NCBI GenBank assembly: GCA_963796285.1
Contig: CAWCKW010000012.1
Span: forward strand, 1,376,001-1,440,000
Source: Nitrospirota bacterium
Lineage (GTDB): Bacteria; Nitrospirota; UBA9217
DNA length: 64,000 nt
Reading direction: 5' to 3'
In this document: piece by piece, positions 257 to 8,723 of the stretch
Numbering within the stretch: the stretch's first letter is position 1
Layout of the letters: every line of letters starts with the position of its first letter
Position numbers and translations under genes: made by a program
Notes under the pieces: generated by a model
What the model was told of the DNA's origin: nothing
The model's input: the letters and a program-made list of their open reading frames with translations, nothing else
Databases searched by the model: none

Positions 257-631
257 ATGCACATTTACGAATCAATATTCATCATCAACCCCAACCAGAC
301 CGACGAAGAGACGGCCAATGTGATCAAGAAAATGCAGGACGTGGTCACGAAACAGGGCGGCGAAATGACCAAGTTCGAGGACTGGGGCAAAAAGAAACTT
401 GCCTATGAGATCAAGAAGCAGAAGCGCGGCCACTATGTGTTCTTCCAGTTCAAGGCAGCGCCCAGCGTGGTAAGCGAACTCGAGCGTACGTACAAGATGA
501 CCGATTCGGTCATCAAGTTCTTGACGGTCAAGCTCGAAAAAGAACTGCGCGTTAGGCCGGCCCCCAAACCGAAGAAGAAAGACCTCGCCAAAGCAGCGGC
601 AGCTGCAGAGGCAGGACAGGCCACGGCGTAG
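257..631 (+). CDS. rpsF: 30S ribosomal protein S6
   Basis: YESIFIINP, WGKKKLAYEIKK, GHY motifs; GAGGAG SD; synteny with ssb and rpsR. Confidence 0.97.
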   Translation: MHIYESIFIINPNQTDEETANVIKKMQDVVTKQGGEMTKFEDWGKKKLAYEIKKQKRGHYVFFQFKAAPSVVSELERTYKMTDSVIKFLTVKLEKELRVRPAPKPKKKDLAKAAAAAEAGQATA

Positions 632-715
632 CCGCTGCCCGCTGTTCGTAATTTGTCCGACTCCCTCCTGCAACTGAACAGATGCATGAGGTCGTCGTTA
701 AAATCGAGGTAACCC

Positions 716-1140
716 ATGACAAGCTTTAATAAAGTGATCCTGCTGGGCAATCTCACCCGCGATCCCGAGGTGCGCTACACCCCGAACGGCAGCGCGGTCG
801 CGAGCTTTGCCATCGCAGTCAACCGCAAGTACAAGCAAGGCGAAGAGACCAAGGAAGAGGTCAGCTATCTCGACATCGTCGTGTTCGGCAAGCAGGCTGA
901 GAACTGCGGGCAATATCTCAACAAGGGAGATGCGGCACTGATCGAAGGCAGGTTGCAGCAGCGTCGATGGGAAGACAAAGATTCCGGCCAGAAGCGAAGC
1001 AAGGTCGAAGTGGCAGCGCAATCAGTGCACTTCATGCCGAAGCGTTCATCCGCGGGTCAGGGTGCAGGCCAGGGTGGCGGTCACAGCCAATCTGAGCCCG
1101 CTCCGAAACGCCCCTGGATGAGGGAGAGATCCCCTTCTAA
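716..1140 (+). CDS. ssb: Single-stranded DNA-binding protein (frameshift near 1108)
   Basis: FNKVILLGNLTRDPEVRYT OB-fold start; the canonical acidic tail LDEGEIPF* is in another frame ending TAA 1138-1140. Confidence 0.93.
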
Positions 1141-1190
1141 CGCAGGACAACTGAGTATTAAAAAAACTACTACACGAGGAGTTCAATATT

Positions 1191-1505
1191 ATGGCAGAGT
1201 ACCCAGCAAGATCATCGGCACCACGGTCTTCTGACTCGCGAGGCAGCAGAGGAGACAGCAGAGGCGGCAGCGGCCCGAACAAGAGACGTTTCCAGGTCCG
1301 GAAAAAGGTGTGCCGGTTCTGCGTCGACAAAACACCGTTCATCGATTACAAGGACATGAAGACACTCAGGTTCTTCATCACCGAGCGAGGCAAGATCCTT
1401 CCCCGCCGCATCTCCGGCAACTGCGCCCGGCATCAGCGCGAGGTCACCGTCTCGGTGCAGCGGTGCAGAAATATCGCGCTCCTTCCGTTCTCAGGAGAGA
1501 AGTAA
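1191..1505 (+). CDS. rpsR: 30S ribosomal protein S18 (Zn-binding type)
   Basis: [37 protein letters not shown]. Confidence 0.97.
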
Positions 1506-1554
1506 GTTCGCGCTGTGCGTTGGCAGGCAGCGCACGTTCATGACACACAAAACA

Positions 1555-1601
1555 GGGAAACGCAGCGGTTACGTACAGGTGACCCTGAGTTTCCTTTTTT
1601 T
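1555..1601 (+). terminator. Intrinsic terminator after rpsR
   Basis: Stem GGAAAC..CGGTTAC / GTGACC..GTTTCC followed by a T run. Confidence 0.6.
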
Positions 1602-1812
1602 ATTATAACGGCTTGAGCTGCAAAGCCATATCACCGTGGCGCCAGGACACAGAGAAATGTTTTTTGCACTGATGTACACTGATTACTTGAGATCTATCGG
1701 TGGAGCTCATACGCAATCGTTCTTTTTCAGAGTCAGGGTCATTGACCTTCCCCGCGTATCCACTGTGAGTCTTTGTCCTTATTTTTCGAATCGACCTTTT
1801 GGAGAGATCACC

Positions 1813-2743
1813 ATGAACTACCGTGCCATTCTTATCGCGACAGTACAGACCCTCGGGCTCTTTGTTGCCGGAATTATCCATCCGATCGGCCAGCTGCTCG
1901 CTCTTTTCACTCCCGTGCCGCTCATTCTCGTCTCTATCCGGAACAGGAGTGTGGATGGTCTTATGACGCTCGCCGCTGTCAAGCGTCATCATGGCCGCCC
2001 TCGGGGGATGGCAGGCAGCGGCCATTCTTGTTCTTAGTTTCGGCCTGATGGCGATCGGCACCTCGGAAGGCATGCGCAGAAAATGGAAACCCGAGCAAAC
2101 CTCGCTCCTGGGCGGACTCCTTCCGATCGCGGTTCTGGCGGTAATCGTCGTTTTCTACCTGGTCCGGGCAGGCAAAAACCCGATCATGGAGGTCGAGGCG
2201 TATCTCCGGGAAATCATTGCCAATGCAGCAAAAACCTATACGACCATGGGGTTCACTGAAATGGCGGCTACGATCTCATCGATCTCCGATCCCGTCATCT
2301 ATTACTTTGCCAGACTCCTCCCGGGCATTACCATCGCCACTTCGGTGGTTCAGGCGGCCTGCTGTTTTGTCATTGCCCGCGCCATGCTCATGCGAAAACC
2401 GGTAACGGAACCGGCACCAGCTCGGACCTCGCTCGTCTCATGGCATGCGCCGGACTCGTGGGTCTGGGGCCTCATCGCGGCCCTCGCCCTCATCGTACTC
2501 CCGCAGGAGACAGCACGACTCACGGGATGGAACATTGCGATCCTCTTTGCTGTGCTCTATCTCGCACAGGGCTCCGCTATCGTGGAGCATTACCTCAGAA
2601 AAGCGGGCATCAAGACCATTGGCCGGGGACTCCTCCTCGCGCTCATCCTGATCATGCCGTCCATCGTGTTCGTGGTCGCCCTCGGCATTGTCGACATCTG
2701 GGCGGACTTCCGAAAGGTGCGGGTGCCGGTACAAACGATGTAA
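1813..2743 (+). CDS. DUF2232/YybS family membrane protein (frameshift near 1980)
   Basis: GGAGAG SD then ATG 1813; hydrophobic ORFs 1636-2037 and 1991-2743 join; W..P motif and C-terminal LGIVDIWADFRK; usual position after rpsR. Confidence 0.8.
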
Positions 2744-2979: not shown

Positions 2980-3864
2980 ATGCGGACCACCTTGAACCCT
3001 ATTGACCGCCTCACCCTTTCCTTTATCGTGCTGCTCACGGCGGTCATCCTGTTCAACGTCTCCTTCATCTCATCCTGGCCGCAACTCATCTGCACCTACT
3101 TTGTGCTGGTGCTGGTCATTCTTTTACTCGCTGCGCTGGACAGAAGGACTCCCGGAAGAAAGCCTTTCAGTTTCCTGCATGCTTTTTTCCCGATCATCAT
3201 TGTCGCAATGATCTTTAACAGCCTCGGCGACATCATCCCCTTCATCCGGCATCAATACTACGACGACGTCTTGATCCGGATCGACCACATGCTCTTCGCC
3301 ACTCATCCGACCGTGTGGCTGGAACAGTTCAATAGCGCCCCGCTCACCGCAGTGCTCCAAATCGCGTATATCAGCTATTACGGTATGCCGATCGCGCTCG
3401 GCACGTTACTCTATCTCCGGGATAGACGGGTTGAATTCGAGACCGCGGTTTTCACTATCCTCCTCTGTTTTTATCTTTCCTACATCGGCTATATGCTTTT
3501 CCCCGCCGTCGGGCCCCGGTTCACGCTGAACTACCTGCAGACAACTGACCTTCAAGCAGGACCGATGACCCAGTGGATACAGCAGAGCCTCAACTCGCTG
3601 GAGCACAACAAAACCGATGCCTTCCCGAGCGGCCATACCGCCGTGGCGCTGGTGACGCTTTTTTTTGCATGGAAATACCGGCAGAGAGATCTCTTCCGTG
3701 TTCTGGTGCCGGCTGTATCGGCCCTGATCGTCTCAACGGTGTACCTCAGATACCACTATGTCATTGATGTCATCGCCGGCGTGCTGCTCGCCTTGCTGAC
3801 TATTTTCATTGCGCCGTGGATGCATCGGCTTTTCTCAGGAGCGGACCATCACTCGCGGGGCTAA
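2980..3864 (+). CDS. PAP2-superfamily membrane protein, AUR1/inositol-phosphorylceramide synthase-like
   Basis: Multi-TM; P..GPRF, DAFPSGH and STVYLRYHYVIDVIAG motifs match the AUR1-type catalytic His/His/Asp layout. Confidence 0.8.
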   Translation: MRTTLNPIDRLTLSFIVLLTAVILFNVSFISSWPQLICTYFVLVLVILLLAALDRRTPGRKPFSFLHAFFPIIIVAMIFNSLGDIIPFIRHQYYDDVLIRIDHMLFATHPTVWLEQFNSAPLTAVLQIAYISYYGMPIALGTLLYLRDRRVEFETAVFTILLCFYLSYIGYMLFPAVGPRFTLNYLQTTDLQAGPMTQWIQQSLNSLEHNKTDAFPSGHTAVALVTLFFAWKYRQRDLFRVLVPAVSALIVSTVYLRYHYVIDVIAGVLLALLTIFIAPWMHRLFSGADHHSRG

Positions 3865-3921
3865 TTCCCGCAGCCTGCAGACGCTCATGGTTATTGTAAT
3901 TCGTTATTTAACCTGAATAAT

Positions 3922-3960
3922 AAATTTGGACACTGAAGGGGCGGAATGAGCAGAATGATA
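3922..3960 (+). repeat. Repeat family A, partial copy 2
   Basis: ATTTGGACACTGAAGGGGCGGA core. Confidence 0.65.
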
Positions 3961-4097
3961 ATATGAAAAAAATGCACCATGACACGACTTGGACAGGAGT
4001 AACAGGATTGACAGAGATTTATTAAAAAGCATAAATCCGCTTTTATCCTGTAATCCTGGTTAAAAAAACATGTTCCGGATTGTCCGGGTAAAAGGAG

Positions 4098-5212
4098 TTA
4101 AAGGCTCTTTTCGTAAATCCGCCATTTTTTGTAGACGTTCCCGCCCATGAATTCGCAGCCCTTTTGCATAAGGGTGTTGTCTTCCAGGACCCAGGACATC
4201 TCTGCCCGTTCGATACCCTTTGCGTTTGGCCGCCTTGAACGACTCGAGGTAAAGCAGTCCCTCGATGCCTCTCTTCCGGTACTCTTCCTTCACGCCCATG
4301 GTCAGGACGCGGATATCCGATATCTGTTCTCGAATACCATAAGAACTTCATGATCTCAATGGGGCCAAGCCTGCCGTTGATCCTGCTGAGGACCTGGTTG
4401 TAGTCCGGCACGGCCATGTAAAATCCCGCCGGATTGCCGTCCACCTCGGCCATGATAAGCAATTCTGGCACGATGAGCGGCTTAAGCCTCTTTGCCATGG
4501 ATTCGATCTCTTTGTCGGTCATCGGCACAAAACCCCAGTTCTGGCCCCACGCCGAATTATAGATCTCCTTGACCGCGTCCAGCTCGCTCCTGAATTTTTT
4601 CATATTGGCGGGACGCACGACGAGACCCGGCATCTTTTGCCTGACCACTGCCGCCAGTCGTTCAAGCCTATCGCCGGCTGATACATCAGCGATCACCGAG
4701 ATGTATGCATAGAGGTCTTTGGCCTTTGTCAATCCGCATCGTTCCATGTAATCGAGGTAATACGCCGGCGTGTAGGTCATCATGATCATCGGCGGAGAAT
4801 CGAACCCTTCCAGGAGAAAACCGCACTCGTCATTTGTCGAAGGGTTCATGGGCCCGCGCATGACCCCGATGTCTCGCGCCTTGAGCCAATTCGACGCTGC
4901 CCGGACCAGGCTGTCGGCAATCTCCGGATCGGGCATGCATTCAAAAAAACCAAAGAAGCCCGCCCGCTCGTTGTGGAGAGCGATATGGTTCCGATCAATG
5001 ATCGCCGCGATCCTGCCGACGACCTCGCCATTCTTCCGCGCAAGGAAATACGCCGCCTCCGCGTGTTCGAAAAACGGGTTCTTGTGGCTCAGGATGAATT
5101 TGACCTCGCTCAGGAGGGGCGGCACCCAGTTGGGATTTCCCTTATAGACCTTCCAGGGGAATCGGATGAACCGGTCCAGGCCAGGCGCATCGGATATTTG
5201 CTCGATCTGCAT
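4098..5212 (-). CDS. GNAT-fold N-acyltransferase, bacterial ceramide synthase (bCerS)-like; frameshifts near 4325 and 4210
   Basis: FIRFPWKVY..PNWVPPL, GRIAA, GFFGFFE, RGPMN; C-terminus (GVKEEYRKRGI..., EMSWVLEDN..., KKWRIYEKSL*) recoverable in alternate frames; directly downstream of spt. Confidence 0.8.
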
Positions 5213-5222
5213 TATCGATCCC

Positions 5223-6404
5223 TTATGAAATCATCCCCAGCTTCTTCCCCGTCTTCTCGACTATCCCGAGCACGCGGTCAAGCATCTCATCGGTATGGGT
5301 CGCCATGTAACTGGTGCGGATCATACAGCGTCCCTGCGGCACTGCGGGTGGCACCACGGGGTTTACGAACACCCCCTCCTCGCCCAGGATCTTCCACATC
5401 ATGAACGCCCGTTCCATCTCTCCCATCATGAGCGGAATGATAGGCGTTTCGGCTACCCCGGTGTCAAAGCCCATCTGCTTGAACGCTTTTATCATCTTGT
5501 TCGTGTGGCGCCAGAGGCGTTCCCTGCGATCGGGCTCCTCGGCAATGATGTCCAGCGCCGCGATGACCGCGGCCACGGAAGCGGGCGGCGGACTCGCGCT
5601 GAAGATCAGGGGGCGGGCATGGTGCTTCATGTAATGGATAACCTCCTCGTCGGCAACGGCGAACCCGCCGATAGAAGCAAGTGACTTGCTGTACGTGCCC
5701 ATGATGACATCCACGTCCTTTTCGAGGCCGAAATGCTCGGCAGTACCGCGGCCGGTTTCACCCAGGACGCCGATGCCGTGGGCATCATCTACCATGAGCC
5801 GTGCGCCGTATTTTTTACAGACCTTCACGATGTCCGGGAGCGGCGCGATGTCGCCCTCCATGCTGTAGACGCCGTCCACCACCACCAGCTTGCCCCTGTC
5901 TCCGCACTCTTGCAGAACGAACTCGAGGCTGTTCATGTCGCTATGTTTGAACTTCTTGATTTCCGCAAATGAAAGCCTGCAGGCATCGATGATGCTGGCA
6001 TGGTCAAGCTTGTCGATCACGACGACGTCGTCCTTGCCCGCCAGGGAAGAGATAATACCGAGGTTCGTCATGTAACCGGTGGAAAAGGTAAGGGCAGCAT
6101 CCTTGCGAAAGAACTTCGCCAGCTTATCTTCGAGTTCCACGTGGATGTCAAGCGTGCCGTTCAAAAAGCGCGAACCCGCGCAACCGCTTCCGTACTTCCT
6201 AACGGCCTCGATCGCCGCTTCTTTTACCTTCGGGTGGTTGGTGAGCCCAAGATAGTTGTTCGATCCGAGCATGATCATCTTCTTGCCCCCAACGATCACC
6301 TCGGGGTCCTGGGCCGATTCCATGACGCGGAAGTAAGGATAGAATCCCGCGGCCATTATCTCTTTTGCCGTCGTAAATGATTTGCACTTGTCGAAGAAAT
6401 CCAC
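5223..6404 (-). CDS. spt: PLP-dependent alpha-oxoamine synthase, probable serine palmitoyltransferase
   Basis: [45 protein letters not shown] (PLP Lys); GTG start after GAGGGG; flanked by bCerS-like and CerR-like genes. Confidence 0.8.
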
Positions 6405-6447
6405 GGTTTTTCCCCTCTTAGCTTGAAGTTTGGCGTCTGCCTTTTTT

Positions 6448-7431
6448 TTATAGCCAGTTGTTATCACGGTACCACCTCCATGTGATGTCTAACCCTTGAT
6501 GTAAGGGGTACGCAGCTTTGAATCCGAGTTCCTTTTCCGTTTTGGCGATATCGCAGATCCAGTACGTTTGAGAGGCCTCGCACACCTTCTGCCTGTTCGT
6601 AAGTGCGGGCCTGGAGGTGAACAAGCTCCCCACCTCTGACACCAGGCCGATCAGGTATGCGGCCGAGTACGGAATTTTGATGGTGCGCGCCTTCACCGAC
6701 CCTGTGGACAGCAATGCCTGCCTGAATTCGGACCATGAGTATGGCCGGTCCTCGGCAACAAAATAGATACTTCCACTCGCTGTCTGCTGTTCCATGGCAA
6801 GGAACACGGCATTCACGAGGTCCCCGACATAACAGAAATTGAGAAACCGCTCCCTGCCCGCAATCTCCAGCGTCACGCCCCGGGCTGCCCATCGGAAGAG
6901 CTCAAACATATCACGGTCCCGTGGGCCATACACCGCAGACGGCCGGAGGATGACCACGGGGAATTTTTCTTTGTATGCGAGCGTTTCTGTTTCTGCTAAG
7001 AGCTTGCTCCTGCCGTAATCAGAGACCGGATGAGGGGGATCGCTGTCTTTGACCGGAGTCCCGTCCGTGCCCGGTCCTGCTGCTGCGAGGCTCGAAATCA
7101 GGATAAACTTTTCGATGCCCGGATTATGTCGCGCACATGCTTCCAGGATATTCCTGGTACCGATATGGTTTACCTTATAATATTCTCTTGCCCGTCTAGC
7201 CTTGGTCAATCCTGCCGCGTGGATGACAACGGAAGCCTGCTTCACAGCTTTGGCAAGAGTCTCCGGCAGCAAACAGTCTCCGGCCTTCACATCAACGTTC
7301 AATCCCGAAAGCCAGCGGAGATTTGCGGGGTCCCTTACCAGGCACGAAACTGAATACCCTTTCTTGAGCAGCAGTTCCGTCAGATGGCTGCCGATGAAAC
7401 CGGTGCCTCCGGTAATGAGAATCTTCTTCAC
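6448..7431 (-). CDS. NAD-dependent epimerase/dehydratase (extended SDR), ceramide reductase CerR-like
   Basis: TGGTGFIG Rossmann motif, SSLAA, YGRSK (YxxxK), RPSAVYGP; first gene of the spt operon. Confidence 0.75.
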
Positions 7432-7702: not shown

Positions 7703-8230
7703 TTAGGTAGCAGTTTTGATCGCCGCGACATACGGCAGATTCCGATATTGTTCAGCGCAGTCTACGCCGTAACCTACTACGAACAGGTCCGGGATTTCGA
7801 ATCCGCGATATTTAAGGTGCACTTCGGACGTGCGCCTTGGCTTCTTGTCCAGCAGCGCGACGGCTTCGAGGCTTGCCGGCCCTTTTTCCGAAAACAGCTT
7901 GAACAGGCATGCGAGGGTCTCTCCGGTGTCCACGATCGTATCGACGAGAAGCACATGCCTTCCTCGCACGTCAATCTCAATGTCTTTTTTAATCCGAATT
8001 TCTCTCGATGCCGTTGTTGACATGCCGTAGCTCGATGCACAGATGAAGTCGATCGTCACAGGGAACGGGATCCGTCGCATGAGGTCTGCTATGAACACGA
8101 CCCCGCCCTTCAGGACGCAGATAAGTACGAGGTCCTTGCCTGCGTAGTCGCTTGCTATCTGAGCAGCCAGGTCTCCGACCTTTGTCTGAATAGCCCGCTC
8201 GTCGAACAGTATCTCCTGAATTTCCATCAT
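7703..8230 (-). CDS. hpt: Hypoxanthine phosphoribosyltransferase
   Basis: VLKGG, SSYG, LLVDTIVDTGET PRPP loop, FVVGYGVD, YRNLPY. Confidence 0.92.
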   Translation of the reverse strand: MMEIQEILFDERAIQTKVGDLAAQIASDYAGKDLVLICVLKGGVVFIADLMRRIPFPVTIDFICASSYGMSTTASREIRIKKDIEIDVRGRHVLLVDTIVDTGETLACLFKLFSEKGPASLEAVALLDKKPRRTSEVHLKYRGFEIPDLFVVGYGVDCAEQYRNLPYVAAIKTAT

Positions 8231-8242
8231 CTGACATGCTTT

Positions 8243-8398
8243 CTTTGAGGTCGGCCTTTTAAACGTCTCGATATGGCTATACTGTGTTTGAGATCGTTTT
8301 TCACGGCAGGTATGGTCAATTGTTCCCGGTTTTTTTGCTGTCGGGTTTCAACTCGTTGGCCCCGACCTCTTTGACTGTATGATGGTTCAAGTATACCA
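8243..8398 (-). promoter_or_regulatory. Extended -10 promoter and structured 5' leader of hpt
   Basis: Minus-strand TGGTATACT (8390-8398); GAGGTCGG can pair locally with CCCGAC or distally with CCGACCTC. Confidence 0.4.
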
Positions 8399-8723
8399 CG
8401 AACAGAGAATACTGAGGGTTGAAGCGAAACGGTCGAAATGTCGAAATAGTAAAAAAGCACTGTCTAATATGTATTTCATTAAACTTCCGAAATTTATTTT
8501 ATTAACCTTGAACTCGCCACATGAAGCGGATATACTTTCACTACTGCAAACGAAATATTAGTTCTTGTATTCCTGCAGGACACCCCTTTCCAAGCCGGGG
8601 AGAGGACAAGGGTAAGGAGCAAAGCGCTATCAACATTTAATGCGTTTATATCAGTTACCTCAATGCTGCAATGAAAACGACTCATGATATAATGTAATGG
8701 TAATAAAAAGTCAGGAGCGTCCC

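Follow-up and report, generated by a model that had tools for sequence, protein, structure and literature searches.

A 64,000-nucleotide stretch of a Nitrospirota genome (contig CAWCKW010000012.1 of assembly GCA_963796285.1, positions 1,376,001 to 1,440,000; hereafter the window) probably encodes, on balance of its homologies and gene order, a four-gene module for the synthesis of a phosphosphingolipid. Three of the genes, for an extended short-chain dehydrogenase/reductase (SDR), an Spt-like pyridoxal phosphate (PLP) enzyme and a GNAT N-acyltransferase, form a tight minus-strand operon, and the fourth, a plus-strand gene for a PAP2_3 membrane enzyme, converges on it. It is highly probable that the first three, the ceramide core genes, are those of the known bacterial ceramide pathway. 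A preliminary description, made from the sequence alone, had recognized this arrangement, had pointed to FPSGH and YLRYHYVID motifs in the PAP2 protein and had proposed that the organism makes dihydroceramide and a phosphosphingolipid from one locus. All four genes are present as it described them, the PAP2 protein contains "DAFPSGHTAV" and "VYLRYHYVIDV", and homology, synteny and fold lend the proposal support. The features of the locus are as follows.

6448-7431, minus strand: extended SDR, CerR-like; 327 aa, operon gene 1; proposed 3-oxo reductase
5223-6467, minus strand: Spt-like alpha-oxoamine synthase (PLP enzyme); 414 aa from GTG 6467
4098-5212, minus strand: bCerS-like GNAT N-acyltransferase; 370 aa after correction against intact relatives, with two single extra bases in the window
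4075-4087, minus strand: terminator-like hairpin and T run; from a consensus scan, weak
2980-3864, plus strand: Aur1/inositol phosphorylceramide (IPC)-synthase-like PAP2_3 membrane enzyme; start at ATG 2980, 294 aa; proposed to transfer a phospho-head-group to ceramide

In the pathway we propose, 3-ketosphinganine would be formed by Spt through condensation of L-serine and a fatty acyl thioester. The acyl donor is probably acyl-CoA, because the ceramide cluster contains no gene for a dedicated acyl carrier protein (ACP) or acyl-ACP synthetase. The YghO/bCerS-type GNAT would then N-acylate 3-ketosphinganine to an oxo-ceramide and the CerR-like SDR would reduce its 3-oxo group to yield dihydroceramide, an order we adopt because N-acylation precedes reduction in the current Caulobacter model as presented in PMC9386255. 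Finally, the PAP2_3 enzyme, through a His-His-Asp centre (H219, H259, D263), would take a phospho-alcohol from a glycerophospholipid and attach it to the C1 hydroxyl of the ceramide, diacylglycerol (DAG) being released. We propose the chemical steps, the donor lipid and the product by homology; what can be observed directly are homology, fold similarity, synteny and co-occurrence.

Linkage of the PAP2_3 gene to the ceramide genes

The SDR-Spt-GNAT-PAP2 arrangement is conserved far beyond chance. We compared 41 genomes, this one and 40 relatives, counting as an Spt orthologue any protein of at least 64% identity, and found such an orthologue in 24 of them. The PAP2 gene is present in 23 of these 24 genomes and in none of the 17 without Spt, and the GNAT gene gives the same figures (23/24 and 0/17). 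The single genome with Spt but no PAP2 gene (G007) is 86% complete and its contig ends inside the GNAT gene, and the single one with Spt but no GNAT gene (G017) is 85% complete; the genomes without Spt, GNAT and PAP2 include one from the same genus, G008, that is 100% complete. Gene order was examined in 20 loci fetched around Spt orthologues, and in 16 of them the PAP2 gene lies convergent beside the operon. Two of the misses are contig ends, and in two genomes (G027 and G036) the PAP2 gene is found elsewhere, away from the Spt locus. The preliminary description had held that a PAP2 gene unlinked from the operon in related genomes would speak against its proposal, and it is linkage and co-occurrence that we find.

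In most of this family the genes for a CDF transporter, SDR, Spt, GNAT and a 194-aa membrane protein come in that order and face a PAP2 gene, behind which lies TolC. In the genome studied here the CDF, 194-aa protein and TolC genes are contiguous and lie about 435 kb from the four genes. That these three were left apart while the other four are together leads us to conclude that the four genes, PAP2 included, stayed joined through a rearrangement. The four are now flanked by a DUF2232 gene on one side and a phosphoribosyltransferase gene on the other. The DUF2232 gene closes an rpsF-ssb-(rpsR)-DUF2232 ribosomal-protein neighbourhood (window 257-2743) in which rplI is the gene usually expected next; the PAP2 gene occupies that place, which fits with the four genes having been inserted as a block at this site, and only in this lineage and G004.

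The 194-aa membrane protein (MKxIGRKLYHL...) is encoded between GNAT and PAP2 in most relatives, its 3' end overlapping that of the PAP2 gene (L006:7215-7808, minus strand, with equivalents in L007-L016 and L019-L022), and its copy in the present genome is at G000:C12:942958-943530 (L031:1489-2073, minus strand). Neither Pfam nor NCBIfam has a match for it, even at E 10. We considered this protein as a kinase that recycles DAG and dropped the idea, for which there was no supporting evidence; its gene is away from the four genes and hence outside the module.

Do these figures overstate the coupling? Several points count against the coupling. Related genomes are kin, so that the co-occurrence counts are not independent and stand for fewer events than the numbers themselves. 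In addition, a scan for PAP2 relatives with the PAP2 alignment as query (one genome per species, 80 loci kept) divided evenly. At least one ceramide gene is adjacent in 40 of the 80 loci, which include contigs labelled Geobacterales, Desulfuromonadales, Geobacter, Oryzomonas, Methylomirabilota, Binatia and Thermodesulfobacteriota, and the other 40 have no ceramide gene within the flank. The unlinked loci mostly carry Thermodesulfovibrionales or Nitrospiraceae labels, their PAP2 proteins are 41-51% identical and some lie on short contigs. They come from 39 genomes, of which 34 hold an Spt orthologue elsewhere (67-83% identity); in the remaining five, one of them a 0.9-Mb bin and all of completeness not given, no Spt orthologue was found.

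A further question raised by the scan is whether the module has moved between phyla. Thirteen loci with Geobacterales, Desulfuromonadales, "delta proteobacterium", Geobacter and Oryzomonas labels (L072-L074, L078, L080-L082, L087, L089, L090, L093, L098) carry the cluster, and their proteins are 77-81% (Spt), 71-76% (GNAT), 59-68% (SDR) and 49-61% (PAP2) identical to those of the window. This similarity is about that seen within the window's own family and suggests that the whole four-gene module may have been transferred between phyla. Beyond the PAP2 gene, 11 of the 13 loci also carry a second GNAT paralogue (39-43% identical); none was seen in L073 and L078, and in L098 the contig ends there. 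One relative also has a second, divergent pair, in which a PAP2 paralogue (34%) lies directly beside an SDR paralogue (29%) on the same strand (L034, G012:C1:673-3296).

Fold and class of the PAP2_3 protein

Is the product of the fourth gene a transferase or a phosphatase? We lean, with moderate confidence, towards a ceramide head-group transferase of the Aur1/sphingomyelin synthase (SMS) type. The protein begins, as do its relatives, at ATG 2980 (MRT...), not at the upstream TTG 2944. Among Pfam families it matches PAP2_3 best (89.1 bits), ahead of PAP2 (52.6 bits) and PAP2_C (34.3 bits), the last being the C-terminal domain of sphingomyelin synthases, whose cut-off of 27 it exceeds. In an alignment of 21 relatives (24-88% identity) H219, H259 and D263 are invariant and a PAVGPR segment is conserved, and in Aur1 the PSLH and HHYFVD motifs occupy the places of these three catalytic residues.

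The predicted fold points in the same direction. The AlphaFold2 model is of good quality (pLDDT 88.2, pTM 0.88), and with Foldseek the only matches at E of 0.001 or below were two entries for yeast Aur1, 9ivc_A and 9vj4_A (E 6.4e-5 and 3.9e-4). When aligned with VIA-align, 9ivc_A gave Z 18.7 with 260 of 294 residues aligned (root-mean-square deviation 4.3, model range 1-283) and 9vj4_A gave Z 18.6 with 254 residues aligned, the Aur1 alignments starting at residue 1 or 9 and ending at 283. Phosphatases match only the PAP2 core, from about residue 92 to about 290, with 162-178 residues aligned: LpxE at Z 15.8 (162 aligned), Bacillus subtilis PgpB at Z 14.4 (165 aligned) and G6PC1 at Z 14.1. Aur1 is thus the top fold match, and no other match extends over the three N-terminal helices as well. 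The likeness has its bounds, since identity to Aur1 is 18-19%, the window protein has 294 aa against 401 aa in Aur1 and no Kei1 partner is known here, yet the two share a near-whole-length fold as well as PS(G/L)H and S-T-x5-H-H/Y-x2-D motifs. The animal sphingomyelin synthases (SMS1/2 and SMSr; PDB 8ijq) offer a second comparison, as the type of reaction we propose, in which a head group passes from a glycerophospholipid to ceramide and DAG is released, is theirs also; in fold they are a weaker match than Aur1 (SMSr: Z 11.3, 204 aligned, Foldseek TM 0.40).

The rival possibility is that the ceramide trio is real and the PAP2 protein is a lipid phosphate phosphatase, with ceramide-1-phosphate, a sphingoid-base phosphate, phosphatidylglycerophosphate, undecaprenyl pyrophosphate or lipid A as substrate, which travels with the sphingolipid genes as both remodel the envelope. 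We regard this as unlikely, although it has to be taken seriously: the His/His/Asp centre is common to phosphatases and transferases, the core of the protein aligns well with the phosphatases named above, and a likeness of fold alone is compatible with either chemistry. Two sequence comparisons also count against a transferase. Profile-to-PDB scores are about equal and marginally favour PgpB (26.5 bits) over Aur1 (24.3 bits), and the protein falls far below the equivalog cut-off of its best NCBIfam model, PhinosDhcerSyn (NF052609, built for BT_1522; 46.7 against 480 bits, residues 110-289). What tips the decision towards a transferase is, beside the whole-length match and the higher score of PAP2_3 over generic PAP2, the make-up of the phosphatase motifs. 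The canonical C1 motif K-x6-RP occurs nowhere in the PAP2 sequence, and neither does the canonical C3 motif S-R-x5-H-x3-D; the C3 region reads S-T-V-Y-L-R-Y-H-Y-V-I-D, the S-T-x5-H-x3-D form of Aur1, with Thr in place of the Arg of the phosphate-binding S-R in PgpB, and this residue, Thr253, is kept in at least 90% of the 21 relatives. Furthermore, housekeeping phosphatase roles could be filled by four other PAP2 genes in the genome, all of them short and generic. Broader searches discriminated little: PF14378, as a whole-genome probe, was unspecific (matches in 11 of 14 control genomes), and a protein atlas search with the PAP2 protein returned generic "PAP2 family" clusters only.

The proposed ceramide enzymes

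The acyltransferase gene needs correction before it can be compared. Its listed 389-aa open reading frame (ORF; 4043-5212) ends in a nonsense C-terminus, and when read against an intact relative of 370 aa (P0005) the frame proves to be broken twice, by an extra base at 4326 and another at about 4211; the corrected gene ends at 4098-4100. The preliminary description had hinted at as much in speaking of frame-corrected genes. Residues 1-296 of the window protein are 98% identical to P0005, which scores 35.3 bits for Acetyltransf_1 in Pfam and aligns end to end with YghO of Escherichia coli BL21 (36% identity over 370/380 residues, E 3e-85). The YghO gene sits in the BL21 spt cluster and, according to the legend of Fig. 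9 of PMC9386255, yghO (ECD_02850) is aca, the orthologue of the Caulobacter acyl-CoA N-acyltransferase CC_1154. Judged by sequence, the GNAT is a full-length homologue of this bCerS orthologue, which bears out its earlier assignment as a bCerS-type enzyme. A PDB sequence search with the GNAT returned just distant GNAT tails, at E of 0.005 or above.

Are the two frameshifts real? If so, the pathway would be dead in this strain and the locus a decaying remnant, and in favour of that one can cite the window sequence as given and the broken copies seen in some relatives (G001, G005, G020 and the second copy of G013). We consider this improbable, and the two frameshifts most likely to be assembly errors. 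In Logan contigs of four metagenome runs from four studies, compared with window 3900-5400, one letter is absent at 4326 from every covering contig (depth of the omission/total depth: X1 14.8/14.8, X2 8.96/8.96, X3 9.05/9.05, X4 10.3/10.3), and one letter is missing at either 4209 or 4211, again in every covering contig. Several of the frameshift-free contigs differ from the window in only 0-1 other letters. A third single-base excess in the window, in the spacer at 3916, is likewise absent from the contigs of the other studies. Its two indels aside, the gene matches intact copies at 97-98% identity and has no further damage, and its three neighbours are intact. Broken genes are, moreover, spread over different genes in assemblies with few contigs: relative G004, at 98% identity, has an intact GNAT but a split SDR and a split radical-SAM gene. 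Such a scatter over different places fits indel errors of assembly better than decay. Against this stands the fact that the frameshift-free contigs derive from other samples, which leaves some room for a pseudogene private to this strain.

The preliminary description had conceded that a grouping of the PLP enzyme with BioF or Kbl would speak against a sphingolipid pathway. The opposite was found. In a maximum-likelihood tree of 37 proteins, which included the window Spt, 17 Nitrospirota orthologues, 15 paralogues, the Spt of E. coli BL21 and the Kbl and BioF of E. coli K-12, a 100/100 branch separates the window Spt, its orthologues and E. coli Spt from Kbl, BioF and the paralogues; the tree has three named references only, and its E. 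coli Spt branch is long. The E. coli BL21 enzyme, to which the window protein is 44% identical, forms 3-oxo-sphinganine according to PMC9386255. The phylogeny against Spt, BioF, Kbl and HemA that had been envisaged was thus obtained for BioF and Kbl, and HemA, which is not in the tree, was compared by hidden Markov model (HMM) and PDB ranking. Both rankings place serine palmitoyltransferase (SPT) above Kbl, BioF, HemA, CqsA and the cysteate acyltransferase. Apart from Aminotran_1_2 in Pfam (205.9 bits) and a PLP-lysine motif, the enzyme matches, among NCBIfam models, SerpalmtaseCFB first (565.8 bits), followed by gly_Cac_T_rel (439.4), SerpalmtaseBetaP (434.3), Kbl (406.4) and BioF (405.3). 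In the PDB its best match is the SPT of Sphingobacterium (8guh/3a2b, 426 bits), with a BioF/Kbl hybrid at no more than 341, Sphingomonas-type SPT at about 320-329, Kbl at 270.7 and the cysteate-C-fatty acyltransferase of sulfonolipid synthesis at 246.8 bits. From these comparisons of sequence the PLP enzyme is predicted to be a serine palmitoyltransferase, not a BioF or Kbl.

Two reservations apply to this assignment. The enzyme misses the curated NCBIfam equivalog cut-offs (565.8 against 640 for CFB, 434.3 against 500 for BetaP and 377.9 against 670 for AlphaP), and it belongs to a lineage on which the NCBIfam SPT models were not built; and serine as its amino-acid substrate is a prediction. 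It is very improbable that the operon instead makes another N-acylated amino-ketone or amino-alcohol lipid (1-deoxy bases from alanine or glycine, or a cysteate sulfonolipid) or serves biotin or threonine metabolism, even with an HMM score below the cut-off and with the substrates of alpha-oxoamine synthases known to vary (alanine and others are among those discussed by Ding et al., PMC11334938), because the cysteate enzyme scores much lower, BioF and Kbl lie across the 100/100 branch with a separate paralogue available for their roles, and serine alone provides the C1 hydroxyl on which a head-group transferase depends, PAP2 co-occurring with this very Spt. The paralogue, a second alpha-oxoamine synthase in the genome (G000:C12:817726-818613, L002-L004), is 39-48% identical to Spt and probably BioF/Kbl-like; its gene is split over two reading frames, probably by another assembly indel error. 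As to the start of Spt, many relatives align only from about residue 20 and the true start may therefore be near 6404, rather than at the GTG at 6467, from which the first 20 nt of the gene would overlap the SDR stop.

The SDR is the least secure of the three by sequence. It has the Rossmann motif TGxxGxxG, a catalytic YxxxK (YGRSK) and 138.9 bits for Epimerase in Pfam, and it is homologous over its full length to the epimerase ECD_02852 of E. coli BL21 (26% identity, E 1e-33), which PMC9386255 gives as the orthologue of the epimerase/reductase CC_1164. A search of the BL21 chromosome with the SDR found ECD_02852 as the best match (90.4 bits against 62.0 and 34.2 for the next). In the reverse search of this genome with ECD_02852 the window SDR (91.3 bits) was barely ahead of another extended SDR, on contig C3 (G000:C3:205685-206455, 90.4 bits). 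An identity of 26-27% and this near tie make the case for CerR orthology a weak one by sequence, and it rests mainly on synteny: the SDR gene adjoins the Spt orthologue in 20 of 20 loci from related genomes and overlaps or abuts it in the window. The earlier naming of the SDR as CerR therefore holds as regards homology to the CerR orthologue and adjacency to spt, and is loosely founded as regards the sequence link.

Between the genes, the GNAT start at 5212 is 10 nt past the Spt stop. The hairpin (4087-4075) begins 11 nt past the corrected GNAT stop and its position agrees with that stop; as the scan was by consensus only and found 6 such sites against 6.4 expected, it is weak evidence. Near-identical populations differ in the spacer between PAP2 and GNAT: in two runs there are contigs that pass from 3943/3945 straight to 4098, skipping about 153 bases (spacer 3944-4097), and in several runs contigs begin to diverge precisely at 4098, where the corrected GNAT gene stops. 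A 77-aa ORF (8227-8460) is without a Pfam match.

Predicted head group and relation to known systems

Which head group would the PAP2_3 enzyme transfer? The preliminary description had thought of an IPC-synthase-like transferase, and of that the kinship stands, in that the fold is closest to Aur1, and the inositol is unlikely. Inositol-phosphate synthase (MIPS, PF07994) has no match in this metagenome-assembled genome (MAG), which is 96.2% complete, and the same model matched in the control, Bacteroides thetaiotaomicron. Over the five CDP-alcohol phosphatidyltransferases of this incomplete MAG, no model for phosphatidylinositol phosphate (PIP) synthase scores above 24.7 bits, where the cut-offs are 170 and 350. 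Three of the five are identifiable, two as PgsA (173.7 and 114.3 bits, cut-off 109.1) and one as PssA (134.6, cut-off 107), and two are below cut-off; a psd gene, over its cut-off, adjoins pssA. With neither MIPS nor PIP synthase found and PgsA, PssA and Psd present, phosphatidylethanolamine (PE) and phosphatidylglycerol (PG) would be the available donors and an inositol head group is unlikely. The product is therefore likely to be ceramide phosphoethanolamine or ceramide phosphoglycerol, rather than IPC.

Among the bacterial Aur1-like enzymes in the literature consulted, the only one with genetic proof is BT_1522, the phosphoinositol dihydroceramide synthase of B. thetaiotaomicron (PMC9246714). 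Its model is the best NCBIfam match of our PAP2 protein, which is nevertheless not an equivalog, and BT_1522 sits in an inositol-lipid cluster together with the MIPS and PIP synthase that we could not find here. As reported in PMC9246714, deletion of BT_1522 abolishes PI-dihydroceramide and PE-dihydroceramide stays; it follows that the phosphoethanolamine enzyme is a different protein, to which that paper assigns no gene. Our literature search found no other characterised bacterial enzyme of PAP2 type for a ceramide head group besides BT_1522.

With regard to the ceramide trio, all three families of Caulobacter crescentus (Spt, bCerS and CerR; CC_1162, CC_1154 and CC_1164) and E. coli BL21(DE3) (ECD_02854, ECD_02850 and ECD_02852) are also clustered here, with differences. 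In BL21(DE3) (region 2975001-3006000) yghO and spt are accompanied by genes for a fatty acyl-AMP ligase, an NAD-dependent epimerase and an ACP, whereas the window cluster has neither AcpR (the ACP) nor AasR (the acyl-ACP synthetase), from which we take its Spt to resemble the acyl-CoA-using Sphingobacterium/Bacteroidota type and not the "Rhodobacteria" type, its best HMM being SerpalmtaseCFB. The window also differs in having the order SDR-Spt-GNAT in one tight operon with a PAP2_3 gene attached, a gene absent from both the Caulobacter and the E. coli cluster; a PAP2 search of the BL21 chromosome gave only weak generic matches (E about 1e-3), and a "distant" search of E. coli genomes with the operon DNA gave only a 157-base patch of bioF.

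How new is this? The preliminary description knew of no biochemical account in Nitrospirota-like organisms, and our literature search likewise found no paper on sphingolipid synthesis in Nitrospirota, its top-ranked match concerning Nitrospirillum. Any claim of novelty for the phylum is nonetheless modest, given that Spt-like clusters have already been predicted in 40 phyla: in MAGs from 38 phyla Ding et al. (2024) predicted proteins of Spt type, in many cases encoded close to bCerS and CerR, which raised the total to 40, and "Nitrospir" does not occur in the main text of that paper (PMC11334938). The trio is the known Caulobacter and E. coli B pathway, and the PAP2_3 enzyme is the sole part whose function would be new if shown. 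It is conceivable, and we offer it as a tentative view with a little less than even odds, that this PAP2_3 subfamily supplies the ceramide phosphoethanolamine (or phosphoglycerol) synthase that has been missing in bacteria, an Aur1-shaped enzyme with PE or PG as donor, which moves with Spt, bCerS and CerR as a module within genomes and also between phyla, the latter as judged by the 77-81% Spt identity between Nitrospirota and contigs labelled Geobacterales.

For a long time sphingolipids were regarded as rarities among bacteria; the core genes came to be known as late as 2021-22, and metagenomic predictions by now extend to dozens of phyla. The locus described here adds anaerobic, sediment- and peat-dwelling Nitrospirota to the predicted sphingolipid makers. 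It also provides a compact and testable candidate for the step after ceramide, in the form of an Aur1-like PAP2_3 enzyme whose gene shares its gains, losses and moves with those for ceramide synthesis. If the proposed function were shown, it would put a name to what a widespread, unnamed family of bacterial enzymes does and would aid the interpretation of ceramide-phospholipid biomarkers in the environment.

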